From IMG/VR virus record IMGVR_UViG_2671180568_000004: DNA of 54,958 nucleotides; one strand, 5' to 3'. Within the stretch, counting starts at the first letter, position 1. The number at the start of each line of letters is the position of its first letter. The translations under genes and the position numbers were made by a program. Positions 27,680 through 45,632 of the stretch are shown here, one piece after another. The notes beneath the pieces were generated by a model. That model did no database searches and was not told where the DNA came from. It saw only the letters and a program-made list of their open reading frames with translations. Source of the DNA: a virus. Lineage: Duplodnaviria; Heunggongvirae; Uroviricota; Caudoviricetes.

Positions 27680-28213
27680 TTATCTGTCGATTCCCCAGCA
27701 CGCCAGCGCGCTCTCCTGGTCACGACGGGATACCTGACCGTAACAGTTATTTGAGCGAATACGGCAGTCCCTGCCACCGTCCTTAATCCACCAGCGAATC
27801 GCCTCACACGCTCCCCTGCGATCACCTGCATTAATTCGTTTATAAAACGTCGACGGAAAACACTTACCGGGGCCAATGTTGTACGGACAGAATGACGCGA
27901 TCCCCGCTTTCTGGGGTTCACTCAATGGCACTCTGATGTTTTTCTCCACCCATGCCAGCGCCTTATCACGCTCAATGGCGTTAACCCGGTCGCATTTTTC
28001 CTTCGACAACTTCATGCCCGGAACGACAGGTTTGCCATCCACCAGGATGGCACCGCGGCAGATGGTCCAGATACCCGCGCCATCACGGTATGCCGTGGTG
28101 TGGTTACCTTCCTTTTCATCCAGAAACTGGTCGAGAATGTCAGGCGCAGGCGCACCAGCGGCAATCAGCGCCAGAACGGCAGCCGACAGGCCGTATCTGA
28201 TTTTTGCGTTCAT
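27680..28213 (-). CDS. R: SAR-type endolysin (T4-lysozyme-like)
   Basis: 177 aa; N-terminal signal-anchor-release-like segment MNAKIRYGLSAAVLALIAAGAPA; lysozyme catalytic region. Confidence 0.85.
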   Translation of the reverse strand: MNAKIRYGLSAAVLALIAAGAPAPDILDQFLDEKEGNHTTAYRDGAGIWTICRGAILVDGKPVVPGMKLSKEKCDRVNAIERDKALAWVEKNIRVPLSEPQKAGIASFCPYNIGPGKCFPSTFYKRINAGDRRGACEAIRWWIKDGGRDCRIRSNNCYGQVSRRDQESALACWGIDR

Positions 28214-28318
28214 GGATATTTATCAGGATTTATCGGTTTCTGAGCCCTGGATATGTTTATCAGTTCCAGCCTGTTGCCTCAGGCTGCTAACAGGTCAATA
28301 CAATCATGAGGATTATTT

Positions 28319-28591
28319 ATGGACAATAACACCATTTCTCTACAGGAGTTGCTCGACAGCATTTCCAGGCTTCGGGAAGACGTGAATACCCTTACCGTCG
28401 CCTTCTCATATCTGGCATTCTCAATTCCAAGGGAACAGATGCAATCAACGCTGGCATCAATCCAGTTTGAATCATGCAATCCCAAATGGTCTCAGGAACA
28501 ACAAGACTCTTTCAGGCGGCTTGCTGTATTACTGGATGAAAAATATGCTGGTAAAATTACCATTTCGGCGGACTCTTCAGAGAACCAGTAA
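28319..28591 (+). CDS. hypothetical protein (90 aa) on the opposite strand inside the lysis cassette
   Basis: ATG with GAGGA RBS; TACAAT -10-like element upstream; no recognised domain. Confidence 0.45.
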   Translation: MDNNTISLQELLDSISRLREDVNTLTVAFSYLAFSIPREQMQSTLASIQFESCNPKWSQEQQDSFRRLAVLLDEKYAGKITISADSSENQ

Positions 28592-28901
28592 TTATTCCCG
28601 GTAGTTTTCCTCTGTAGGTTATCAACACATCCTGCGCCTCTAAAATTACGGGGCGCTTTTCCGGCGACTGCTCATCCCCTTCACATAACCCGGCAGCAAC
28701 ATCCAGGAAGACCTGTCTGATGCTTCTTCTGGCTGCTGCCTCATAAAACTCCAGCGCGGCACCTTCAACACGGTCCAGCGAGATGTCCAGGTCAAAAATT
28801 TCACCGTCAAAGCGTTTTTTGTCCCGTAACGCTAAAGTTACCGTAACTTTATTCTCAAAATTGCGGATCCCTTTCACAATCAGTTCATAGTTTTGAGTCA
28901 T
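28557..28901 (-). CDS. YdfR-like protein directly downstream of holin
   Basis: 114 aa; ATG with GGGGAGAG RBS; start region overlaps holin stop; position matches ydfR in K-12 Qin. Confidence 0.5.
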   Translation of the reverse strand: MTQNYELIVKGIRNFENKVTVTLALRDKKRFDGEIFDLDISLDRVEGAALEFYEAAARRSIRQVFLDVAAGLCEGDEQSPEKRPVILEAQDVLITYRGKLPGIITGSLKSPPKW

Positions 28902-28905
28902 TGAA

Positions 28906-29121
28906 TTACTCTCCCCGTGCCGCCTTACGACGGTCCTCTCTGATTTTGAAATACAGGTTAGTCAGATATGTCAGCAGCCCAAACAGCAGACTCCCCAGCA
29001 CGCCTATTGCCGCCCACTGAGACGGGGAAACCCTGTCCAGCAACTGCAGGAACCAGTAGCCCGTTCCCACCGCTGACGTGGTGTATGACACACCTGTTGT
29101 GATTTTTTCCATCTGGTACAT
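28906..29121 (-). CDS. S: holin (dual-start motif MYQM)
   Basis: [73 protein letters not shown] segments plus charged C-terminus. Confidence 0.85.
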
Positions 29122-29271
29122 ACCCCGTCTCCCGTTATCCGGAAGCTGACAACAATAAAAAAAGCCACCAGTTAAGTACTGATGGCTCTGATAACTCATG
29201 CAGGCATCTCAGACGACCCACTGACACTACCGGTGAGTTTAACGATACCTTCCATTTGACTGGCTCACTTT

Positions 29272-32200
29272 TTATGATGATGCCGGTGCATTTATCTCCA
29301 GCACCAGGCTGCCGATATCGACGCCATACGCTGCATTTTTGGTAATATCCGTCAGCGTCAGCGCATTCAGCCCCAGTGTCAGACTGTCTTTTATGACCTG
29401 GAATGCCGGGCCAGCCACTCCATTCAGTTTCGGAGTAACCGTGGCACTGCCGGCGGTGAACACCAGCTCCAGCGTCTGCCAGTCGTTACTGTAATTCCCG
29501 AACTCGCCCAACTTTGTGTTTCCGGCTTTCTTGTGATGCATCAGATTCAGTTTGCCGTCTGTGGTCTGGGTGAAGAACGACATCAGGAACGGGTTACCAG
29601 TCCCGGTCATCGCCACGACGTCAGGTAACGCTACATCGGTATACAGATAAATTCCCAGACCGAACTGGTTGTTGGTCAGTGCGCCTGACAGTCGAAACTT
29701 ACAGCTCAGTCTGCCACCCCGTGTCAGCAGGGAGACTGCGTCATCCACCGGATGCATCAGGGACCAGGTTTTATTGCTCTGCTTGGTAACCTTAAACACA
29801 CCATCTTCCAGCGCAACACTGCCGCCGGTGATGGTCCAGCCCTGCGCAGCAGCCTCTCCGGCTGTCGGCAGCAGGGAGACTGTACGAACGGATGTGTCAC
29901 CATCAGACGGCCCCGATGGNNNNNNNNNNCGTCAGCGCATTCAGCCCCAGTGTCAGACTGTCTTTTATGACCTGGAATGCCGGGCCAGCCACTCCATTCA
30001 GTTTCGGAGTAACCGTGGCACTGCCGGCGGTGAACACCAGCTCCAGCGTCTGCCAGTCGTTACTGTAATTCCCGAACTCGCCCAACTTTGTGTTTCCGGC
30101 TTTCTTGTGATGCATCAGATTCAGTTTGCCGTCTGTGGTCTGGGTGAAGAACGACATCAGGAACGGGTTACCAGTCCCGGTCATCGCCACGACGTCAGGT
30201 AACGCTACATCGGTATACAGATAAATTCCCAGACCGAACTGGTTGTTGGTCAGTGCGCCTGACAGTCGAAACTTACAGCTCAGTCTGCCACCCCGTGTCA
30301 GCAGGGAGACTGCGTCATCCACCGGATGCATCAGGGACCAGGTTTTATTGCTCTGCTTGGTAACCTTAAACACACCATCTTCCAGCGCAACACTGCCGCC
30401 GGTGATGGTCCAGCCCTGCGCAGCAGCCTCTCCGGCTGTCGGCAGCAGGGAGACTGTACGAACGGATGTGTCACCATCAGACGGCCCCGATGGCGTGTCG
30501 CCGCCGGGTGAGGGTTTAATCTCCGGTGCGGTACCGCTGATGAAGGCGCTGGTTCGACCAACTGCGTTCAGAATAGCGGTTGCCAGGCGATCCGAAATAA
30601 TGCCCCTGCGCGCCCATGAACTGAAATGTGTCGGACGATTTGACGATACCCAATTACCATTACTACGGGATAGCGCGCCGTAATAACCTGCATCAGCAAT
30701 ATCCGGGTCTTCTGCCGGTAAGTTGGTGGGCGTGTTGTTGCCGTTACCGTCGGTCATGAACGGCACAAAGAAAACGTTGTCGCTCTCCCTGTTTTTGTAC
30801 GCGCCGTAGACGGAGTCATACTGTGTGCCGTATGTGTTTTTCCAGTAATACGTCGTGTCGCCACAAATCCACGGTACAACTGCAGCACTGCCGCCATGGC
30901 ACTGCGCGTTAAATCCGGAAAGGTCAGTACGGAACTGCTTCAGCATGGCCGTGAACAGGTCCGGTTGCTGTGCGTAGGTGGCAGCGCTCATGTCAAATTC
31001 GCCCTGCATCCAGCACACCGCCAGCAACACATTTTTCGGGTTCTTCTGTAATGCNNNNNNNNNNGAGGGTTTAATCTCCGGTGCGGTACCGCTGATGAAG
31101 GCGCTGGTTCGACCAACTGCGTTCAGAATAGCGGTTGCCAGGCGATCCGAAATAATGCCCCTGCGCGCCCATGAACTGAAATGTGTCGGACGATTTGACG
31201 ATACCCAATTACCATTACTACGGGATAGCGCGCCGTAATAACCTGCATCAGCAATATCCGGGTCTTCTGCCGGTAAGTTGGTGGGCGTGTTGTTGCCGTT
31301 ACCGTCGGTCATGAACGGCACAAAGAAAACGTTGTCGCTCTCCCTGTTTTTGTACGCGCCGTAGACGGAGTCATACTGTGTGCCGTATGTGTTTTTCCAG
31401 TAATACGTCGTGTCGCCACAAATCCACGGTACAACTGCAGCACTGCCGCCATGGCACTGCGCGTTAAATCCGGAAAGGTCAGTACGGAACTGCTTCAGCA
31501 TGGCCGTGAACAGGTCCGGTTGCTGTGCGTAGGTGGCAGCGCTCATGTCAAATTCGCCCTGCATCCAGCACACCGCCAGCAACACATTTTTCGGGTTCTT
31601 CTGTAATGCCGCTTTGGTGCGTGCGATCAGGTCCTGATATAACGGTTTACCCACACCCCAGCGTGCCGAATCCTGGCTGGCCCCCGTGTCCGCACTGAAT
31701 GTCCCCTCCGCGCCCTGGGTGAATGCCGAACCACCACGACAGCATGGTACCAGCAGGATCCCCGCGTTATTCGGGATATACGGAAGCAGTTTTTTGGCAA
31801 TATGTAAGCCCTGGCCGACACAGCCGTACTGCCCTTTGCTCAGGTCTGCCTTCGGATGATTCAGTGCGCTCATATCCTGAACATCATGCAGGCAGTGGTC
31901 TGCCGGAATGATGTCGTTAAATGCGCATGCTTTACCACCGGGAGTCACTGTGTTGCGACGGGCCAGTTGCTTAATGCGTGGGTGGGGCGCATCGTAAGAA
32001 TCCGGAAGCGGAAGCCCTTCACCGTAAGCCATGGCATTGGATTGCCCGGCCAGTACGATGACGTAGTACCACTCCGGCTCAGTTGCACCACTGACGACCA
32101 CATCACCTTCTGCTGCAATCGCCTGCATCAGGGTATAAGGGGTTATGGCCACCGGACTACCAAACGGCTGCCAGCCCTCTTTCATTTTATGTGTCAGCTT

Positions 32201-32272
32201 TTCCGCAAGATCTGACGGCGACGCCGCCCTGACAACATCATAGTGTTTAAATGCCATGGTTCTTTCCACCAT
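29272..32272 (-). CDS. prophage sialate O-acetylesterase-like protein (NanS-p-like); coordinates inflated by two scaffold duplications
   Basis: N-terminal MAFKHYDVVRAASPSDLAEKL...; esterase block VLAGQSNAMAYGEG; real length about 623 aa after collapsing the duplicated blocks; likely start ATG at 32257. Confidence 0.6.
29920..29929. other. N10 scaffold gap; 29356..29919 repeated verbatim at 29930..30493
   Basis: read directly. Confidence 0.9.
31055..31064. other. N10 scaffold gap; 30510..31054 repeated verbatim at 31065..31609
   Basis: read directly. Confidence 0.9.
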
Positions 32273-32517: not shown

Positions 32518-32853
32518 ATGAAGTGGATTGTGATTGATACAGTTATCCAGCCATCATGCGGAATATCTTTTTCAGTCATATGGAGTAAAATAAAATTAAT
32601 AATCTGGTATCAATCGGATGCTTTCTTACCTCCTGAAAGTATATTTACACTGACTCACACAGGCATCATGCTCAATAACAAAGTGCTACCTGTAACCATT
32701 TACAACGTAGTACCATTCAATAAAACATTATGGAATTTAATCAAAAACAGCCAGGAATGCCCTACAAATACAGATAACGTATTGAATGAATGCTTTAATA
32801 ACCGTTGCACTCTGCAAATATGTCCTTATGGGCTAAAACAACAAAGTCCATAA
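32518..32853 (+). CDS. hypothetical Cys-rich protein (111 aa) in an AT-rich island
   Basis: ATG with AAGGAAA RBS; candidate promoter TTTACA-15nt-TATACT about 50 nt upstream; opposite strand to the late operon; 7 Cys. Confidence 0.4.
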
Positions 32854-42102: not shown

Positions 42103-42112
42103 NNNNNNNNNN
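42103..42112. other. N10 scaffold gap; 41874..42102 repeated verbatim at 42113..42341 (restart exactly at the IS end)
   Basis: read directly. Confidence 0.9.
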
Positions 42113-45622: not shown

Positions 45623-45632
45623 NNNNNNNNNN
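45623..45632. other. N10 scaffold gap; sequence after the gap restarts at the equivalent of 43738
   Basis: read directly. Confidence 0.9.

Follow-up and report, generated by a model that had tools for sequence, protein, structure and literature searches.

An optional opposite-strand gene between ydfR and the endolysin gene of lambdoid lysis cassettes is a candidate moron

Why does a lambdoid lysis cassette carry a gene that points the wrong way? The window analysed here is a lambdoid prophage stretch of 54,958 nt (IMGVR_UViG_2671180568_000004) whose late genes all lie on the minus strand. Between ydfR and the endolysin gene sits ORF90, a 90-aa frame on the plus strand. The initial annotation offered two explanations for it, a role in lysis timing, or a moron or lysogeny-expressed cargo. 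A moron, in the established phage literature, is an extra gene in a phage genome. The features on which the question turns are these:

26543-27037, minus strand: Rz spanin gene (PF03245, E 2e-49)
26632-26817: Rz1, nested in Rz
27680-28213, minus strand: R21-like endolysin gene (Phage_lysozyme, 177 aa; PF00959, E 1e-23)
28214-28257: 44-nt left junction element adjoining the endolysin ATG, with three TTTATC(A/G)G copies
28299-28304, plus strand: TACAAT, a candidate -10-like element whose A2 and T6 are kept in the E. coli alleles
28308-28312, plus strand: Shine-Dalgarno sequence GAGGA, 6 nt before the ORF90 ATG
28319-28591, plus strand: ORF90, 90 aa, ATG start, PHROG 2411 family
28557-28591, both strands: 35-nt convergent 3' overlap of ORF90 and ydfR
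28557-28901, minus strand: ydfR (DUF1327, 114 aa, C-terminal end ITGSLKSPPKW; PF07041, E 7e-43)
28906-29121, minus strand: S21-type class II holin gene, 71 aa (PF04971, E 9e-33)
29189..29161, minus strand, in the direction of the late transcript: tR'-like terminator found by terminator scan

The surrounding genes form a cassette of the S21/R21 pinholin-SAR endolysin type, with a class II holin, a SAR-like lysozyme and Rz/Rz1. The endolysin N-terminus, MNAKIRYGLSAAVLALIAAGAPAP, contains a hydrophobic, SAR-like segment, from which we infer SAR behaviour. YdfR scores 145 bits against PF07041, where the gathering cut-off is 25, and thus belongs to DUF1327. The layout first described for this locus agrees with the coordinates: holin gene and ydfR are contiguous, 4 nt apart, and ydfR is separated from the endolysin gene by 343 bp (28214-28556), which hold the convergent 90-aa frame with its GAGGA and its overlap with ydfR. 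For its last 11 codons and its stop, ORF90 uses the antisense of the ydfR 3' end, DNA that relatives lacking ORF90 have as well.

On these comparisons, ORF90 is a genuine protein-coding gene under purifying selection. It is intact in all 93 homologous loci located by tblastn across phage records, IMG/VR contigs, GTDB genomes and metagenome assemblies, so the prospect raised at the outset, that relatives might carry the same spacer with a broken frame, did not materialize. These loci hold 16 alleles distinct at the DNA level, encoding 83–90 aa at 58–100% amino acid identity, and not a single indel separates them in codons 1–79. In this part, which does not overlap ydfR, pairwise dN/dS is 0.10–0.40. 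Pooled over six E. coli-type alleles, pN/pS in the ORF90 frame is 0.28 with no stops; the other frames give 0.9–1.9 or contain stops in most or all homologues. The codon-aligned antisense frame mirrors the low ratio, yet is stopped in seven of eight sequences. ORF90 aligns to phrog_2411 along its whole length (residues 1–90 on profile positions 1–90 of 90, E 9.3e-59), and PGAP calls it a CDS (RefSeq WP_000369851.1, hypothetical protein). E. coli Ecol_316 (CP018957) has an identical copy of the locus (BE963_RS20445). The case for a real gene rests jointly on the intact copies, the low dN/dS, the single stop-free frame, the full-length family match and the PGAP call.

That the frame is instead non-functional, for example a relic of an ancestral ydfR extension or an annotation artefact, has next to no probability in our estimate. 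Such a reading can point to the missing known domain, to the absence of a detected promoter or terminator, and to a handful of protein-database copies that are frameshifted or truncated (P0062, P0038, P0041). It sits badly with selection on the frame while the remaining frames are closed, with a length held at 83–90 aa and an indel-free run of 79 codons, with profile-detectable relatives at 25–40% identity in several genera, and with a confident helical structure model (mean pLDDT 81). The name 'ybl58' was considered as a possible pointer to a distant homologue and dropped, P0062 being merely a frameshifted copy; the name is also attached to one member of the P0063 subfamily, and our literature search on it found nothing.

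Relative to phages without it, ORF90 forms a compact insertion. In phage vB_EcoS-640R1, whose YdfR is 94% identical to that of the window, the ydfR stop lies 63 nt from the endolysin start, and pairwise alignment resolves the difference into a clean 273-bp indel at about 28284-28556, with breakpoints uncertain by a few bases. This bears out the description of ORF90 as an extra opposite-strand gene in the lysis cassette. The inserted DNA comprises a 35-nt leader, including TACAAT and GAGGA, and ORF90 codons 1–79. Its G+C content is 0.43, against 0.47 for ydfR, 0.52 for the window, 0.54 for the holin gene S and 0.55 for the endolysin gene R.

The insertion site is a slot with defined edges that other phages fill with other genes. 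On the right, the junction falls directly after the YdfR codons for ITGSLKxPP, beyond which phages diverge: YdfR ends KW-stop where ORF90 is present and ESQP-stop where the slot is empty. On the left, alignment finds the 44-nt element by the endolysin ATG in all slot variants. Phage phiSTEC1575-Stx2k keeps it too, though its next gene is a different holin and its endolysin an M15 peptidase. The element may mark a recombination boundary or serve the downstream lysis gene as a translational or regulatory signal. In Stx2 phage 86 the slot holds a 155-residue YdfR extension and the opposite-strand gp06 (104 aa, phrog_1853); in PhiR5_1 it holds a 99-residue extension and an opposite-strand 86-aa ORF (phrog_2572). 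Both resemble ORF90 in their position between ydfR and R, orientation, approximate size and both junctions. They differ in that YdfR runs on for about 100–155 residues past the PP, whereas the ORF90 cassette adds two codons. Homology of ORF90 to these other slot ORFs was considered and rejected, as they fall into different PHROGs and hhalign detects no relationship to gp06 or the PhiR5_1 ORF (probability <1%). Because unrelated opposite-strand ORFs occupy the same place between conserved flanks, the ydfR-endolysin slot is, as judged from these alignments, a moron hot spot with conserved junctions.

The same boundary is visible in YdfR itself. A core of about 112 aa that closes with ITGSLKxPP is common to YdfR proteins, which then diverge completely (28557-28901 in the window; L004 2067-2873; L005 1934-2569). 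In the long variants, of 211 and 268 aa, the core is fused in frame to unrelated C-terminal extensions brought in with the slot cassette.

The spacer between the endolysin and Rz genes (27038-27679, 645 bp, G+C 0.46) carries three tiny minus-strand hypothetical ORFs in RefSeq and, on the late-transcript strand, a strong terminator-like hairpin at 27589..27557 with a 15-bp stem and a T-run about 90 nt past the R stop; in other relatives this interval holds ant or parDE, or is empty. The window also contains four 10-N gaps (29920-29929, 31055-31064, 42103-42112 and 45623-45632). The first two fall within a SASA/NanS-p-type esterase gene (29272-32272, minus strand) and are flanked by exact duplications of 564 bp and 545 bp. 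The gene thereby appears about 3 kb long with internal repeats, the intact gene in CP018957 measuring 1,857 bp. These repeats are a scaffolding artefact rather than biology.

Within E. coli ORF90 is common; among phage records it is rare. Only three of 370 phage records with the same cassette type carry it (vB_EcoS-783R2, Chlobot and phiSTEC1575-Stx2k). Among 5,426 complete E. coli genomes, about 1,117 contain the ORF90 region, counted as present when at least 80% of 28214-28600 was found, and 4,304 contain ydfR-like sequence; ydfR places in the complete genomes number roughly 8,300. Wherever it occurs in the complete E. coli genomes, its annotation is "hypothetical protein". Close relatives come only from Escherichia, Shigella and Citrobacter.

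ORF90 is also loosely tied to its neighbours. The same ORF90 allele lies beside a YdfR allele only 67% identical (L010, L054), and in three loci (L090-92) the DUF1327 domain has been lost and an untranslatable C-terminal ydfR remnant is left next to an intact ORF90. In phiSTEC1575-Stx2k and in Citrobacter it accompanies different downstream lysis genes. By these comparisons, ORF90 is independent of any particular YdfR or lysis gene set. Toxin-antitoxin pairs adjoin the lysis genes in some related prophages, hicA/hicB in Citrobacter (L008 5087-5770) and parD/parE, between the endolysin gene and a pRha-family gene, in L090-92 (L090 1589-2123). One IMG/VR contig (L044 4242-5707) has two lysis cassettes one after the other: first a complete S-YdfR-R-Rz set, then a truncated YdfR remnant with ORF90, R and Rz. 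This order points to recombination of two prophages or to a chimeric assembly.

How might the gene be expressed? The Q-antiterminated late transcript cannot express ORF90 because the gene lies on the opposite strand, and ORF90 would therefore need transcription of its own. Ribosome-binding sites are evident: GAGGA, AAGGA or CAGGC in E. coli alleles and AAGGA both in Citrobacter (L008) and on a short metagenome contig (L089). The TACAAT noted earlier as -10-like is indeed present at the position described upstream of ORF90. A sigma-70 consensus scan of the upstream region found no promoter and did not report TACAAT; the best -35-like hexamer, TTGCCT at 28274-28279, is spaced 19 nt from it, and a transcript starting about 7 nt past TACAAT would begin within GAGGA. 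Nested inverted repeats at 28267-28293 (CAGCCTG/CAGGCTG and CCTGTT/AACAGG) overlap the -35-like region, with partial conservation across alleles. A LexA box in the same place (CTGT...ACAG at 28271-28293) was considered and discarded, its spacing, judged by eye, being 15 nt where 8 would be expected.

Transcription from ORF90 towards ydfR and the holin gene could in principle act at the RNA level, damping leaky or early lysis expression by antisense pairing or interference. The geometry offers some encouragement. The two genes overlap at their 3' ends, and past 28591 we found no convincing intrinsic terminator on the plus strand, only weak stems in the stretch from the ORF90 stop to the holin gene (one of 5 bp at 29080-29094, and a GCGCC/GGCGC hairpin near 28635-28665). 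The terminator scan found none on the minus strand within the insertion either, which leaves R and Rz within reach of late transcription. Several results run the other way: selection acts on the ORF90 protein sequence, homologues occupy sites that have no lysis genes, most such cassettes work without the insertion, and the promoter scan was negative. On both strands, predicted RNA structure is no better than in shuffled controls (z -0.4 and -0.3), with no match in Rfam. We regard an RNA-level role as very unlikely.

Nothing in the protein sequence points to a direct action on lysis. ORF90 encodes a product of 10.3 kDa with pI 4.5 and GRAVY -0.45; helices are predicted at residues 8–35, 38–52 and 59–77, followed by a disordered tail at 80–90. 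Two AlphaFold2 models have mean pLDDT of 72 and 81, with values below 50 in the C-terminal tail (residues 80–90 in one, 83–90 in the other). The product is thus predicted to be a small, acidic, soluble three-helix protein. It contains no membrane or signal segment and no long hydrophobic stretch. Sequence profiles of Pfam, NCBIfam and PDB gave no match, and neither did the lysis families of PHROG and Pfam; ORF90, YdfR and the other slot ORFs hit no PADLOC-DB defence family at E up to 0.1. Lysis regulators, such as antiholins and inhibitors of holin or endolysin, are recognized by co-expression with the lysis genes and by targeting to membrane or periplasm or derivation from a holin; ORF90 is on the opposite strand and soluble. 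Our literature search found nothing on ORF90, its accession, PHROG 2411, or morons within lambdoid lysis cassettes.

Relatives of ORF90 extend well beyond lysis cassettes. Within PHROG 2411 ORF90 is a full-length member that shows no differences from the family, for which the sources give the names 'hypothetical protein' and 'Ybl58' and for which Pfam and NCBIfam have no model. The PHROG profile also matches relatives in Atlantibacter, in Klebsiella and on a metagenome contig (P0074). A profile search of 1.8 billion representatives returned 21 proteins, including full-length relatives at 25–40% identity, and the Sodalis and dinI-X-bssS chromosomal copies joined the family through such profile hits. 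The distant relatives share the pattern ELLxxIxxLRxxVNxLxxAFxYLxF...E. They lie in the following places:

L097, L098: Atlantibacter prophages, between tail genes M and L
L104: Klebsiella prophage, upstream of the terminase genes
L102, L103: short metagenome contigs (P0074), convergent with an 85-aa ORF
L106: abundant E. coli subfamily, in a genomic island beside an AIDA-type autotransporter gene and an IS remnant
L099: Sodalis ligni, chromosome
L100 (2638-3730), L101, L107: chromosomal relative of 91–92 aa in the order rne-pyrC-dinI-X-bssS-solA, on enterobacterial-type contigs

Scans of IMG/VR for further loci of these distant relatives found none. The chromosomal copy X has the same orientation as dinI and bssS, and SOS or biofilm co-regulation is possible there. 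Because relatives at 25–40% identity sit among tail genes, in a genomic island and at dinI-X-bssS, these contexts argue against a lysis-specific role, and the ORF90 family appears unlikely to be dedicated to lysis. The proposal that ORF90 sets lysis timing finds no support: homologues occur outside cassettes, most cassettes lack the gene, the protein has no membrane or signal segment, and the RNA folds ordinarily.

The family's neighbourhoods invite an analogy with a different class of proteins. IraP, IraM and AriR-type proteins are small enterobacterial helical connectors and anti-adaptors. ORF90 would resemble them in being about 90 aa long, acidic and all-helical, and its family, like theirs, is found both in prophages and on chromosomes near stress or biofilm genes (dinI, bssS). 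Sequence and fold searches matched it to none of these proteins, and we do not claim membership.

A different clue comes from the gene on the other side of the overlap. Four times, in settings that are otherwise unrelated, a gene converging on and overlapping an ORF90-type gene ends in the same short, ITGSLKxPP-like motif:

E. coli YdfR C-terminus: ITYRGKLPGIITGSLKSPPKW
Citrobacter 238-aa partner C-terminus: KIEGKIRNEKITGSLRVPMKL
Atlantibacter 71-aa partner ORF C-terminus (between tail genes M and L): FSIKGNIFSDQIFGDLKKPPSY
Klebsiella 62-aa partner ORF C-terminus (upstream of the terminase genes): VIKGGQLRYKRLTGDILIPLES

In our searches the Citrobacter protein matches nothing in Pfam, DUF1327 included, and the Atlantibacter ORF matches nothing in PHROG or Pfam and retrieves only close relatives. 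This recurrence raises the idea that ORF90 and the converging gene travel as a mobile two-gene module, one that has changed its place within phage late operons and in which ORF90 binds or counteracts a protein ending in I-x-G-...-ITGSLKxPP, YdfR in E. coli. When the 903 ORFs of the loci are searched with an HMM of the YdfR C-terminus, the partners take ranks 1, 2, 4 and 5, each match being weak by itself (E 0.03–3). The loci that have lost DUF1327 (L090-92) still keep the motif-coding remnant beside ORF90, and an interaction of YdfR with RNase E has been reported (PMC13232886). Much of the distribution tells against a module. YdfR proteins with the motif are common where ORF90 is absent; some ORF90 relatives have no partner (L099, L100, L106), and one has a partner that lacks the motif (L102). 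The ORF90 allele is uncoupled from the allele of the YdfR N-terminal domain, and in L090-92 the partner is untranslatable while ORF90 is still intact. The similarity of the partner ends is also partly forced, because the overlap DNA is shared. The case for a functional pairing of ORF90 with YdfR is only suggestive; a two-gene module we consider unlikely.

Published work on YdfR allows a more specific version. The Qin YdfR of E. coli K-12 is reported to bind the catalytic N-terminal half of RNase E and to co-purify with RNA, which makes RNA binding by the protein possible (2026; PMC13232886). In the same work, growth arrest on induction was reported only for yegJ, and the effect of ydfR on the transcriptome was limited (PMC13232886). 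In an old mobile module of this kind, the three-helix ORF90 protein would bind and gate the I-x-G-x(5-7)-ITGSLKxPP end of a coiled-coil or DUF1327 partner, and, expressed in the lysogen as an antagonist, would silence a late RNA-decay effector until induction. We hold this elaboration to be decidedly improbable. Convergent type I toxin-antitoxin modules of prophages also consist of two genes overlapping at their 3' ends. They differ from the present pair in that the ORF90 and YdfR proteins are both soluble and conserved, that YdfR is no small hydrophobic toxin, and that the partner of ORF90 is often absent.

The reading we prefer, by a modest measure of confidence, is that ORF90 is a moron or cargo gene occupying a slot for recombination in the lambdoid late operon. 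The moron or lysogeny-expressed cargo first proposed is the explanation that the insertion anatomy fits best. Two hallmarks of morons are present: ORF90 stands between genes that are adjacent, 63 nt apart, in vB_EcoS-640R1, and the insert's base composition is distinct from that of its surroundings. Against this reading, the scans found neither a consensus promoter nor a clear terminator belonging to ORF90, the other classical hallmarks; downstream, the ORF90 3' end lies within ydfR. The convergent partner with its recurrent C-terminal motif suggests a tie between ORF90 and its neighbour that a moron interpretation leaves out.

Known lambdoid morons provide a measure of how ordinary such a gene would be. 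The bor and lom genes of lambda are morons near late or lysis genes, and Bor is an outer-membrane lipoprotein. The window itself has a second opposite-strand moron in the same late region, the anti-adapter gene iraM (32518-32853, plus strand), identical to the annotated copy in CP018957. Like bor, lom and iraM, ORF90 is an optional small gene on the opposite strand between conserved neighbours, with lower G+C than its surroundings. Unlike them, it has no recognizable promoter or terminator of its own, lies between ydfR and R rather than after Rz, and overlaps its neighbour at the 3' end; its product, soluble and helical, also differs from Bor. Opposite-strand morons are familiar from lambdoid late regions, and the ORF90 family is already catalogued.

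As a moron, ORF90 would have arrived as a compact 273-bp cassette, consisting of a leader, a Shine-Dalgarno sequence and 79 codons, dropped into the late-operon slot between the 44-nt element by the endolysin start and the ITGSLKxPP end of ydfR. From there the frame would read on for 11 codons into ydfR antisense until it meets a stop. The gene would be transcribed independently, most likely in the lysogen. Its protein would probably bind another protein and, as a small modulator, influence the physiology of host or phage, taking no part in the action of holin, endolysin or spanin. Its place in the lysis cassette may simply reflect where lambdoid genomes tolerate and exchange cargo.

These results delimit precisely a slot for cargo in P21/Stx-type lysis cassettes, its junctions being conserved at both sides. 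With ORF90 in about one complete E. coli genome in five, finding its function would give an annotation to a very common gene of prophages. If the partner motif is real, it would give a first functional handle on YdfR/DUF1327, a very widespread protein of lysis cassettes for which a link to RNase E was recently reported. The reach of the family into chromosomal dinI-bssS loci points to host physiology rather than lysis.
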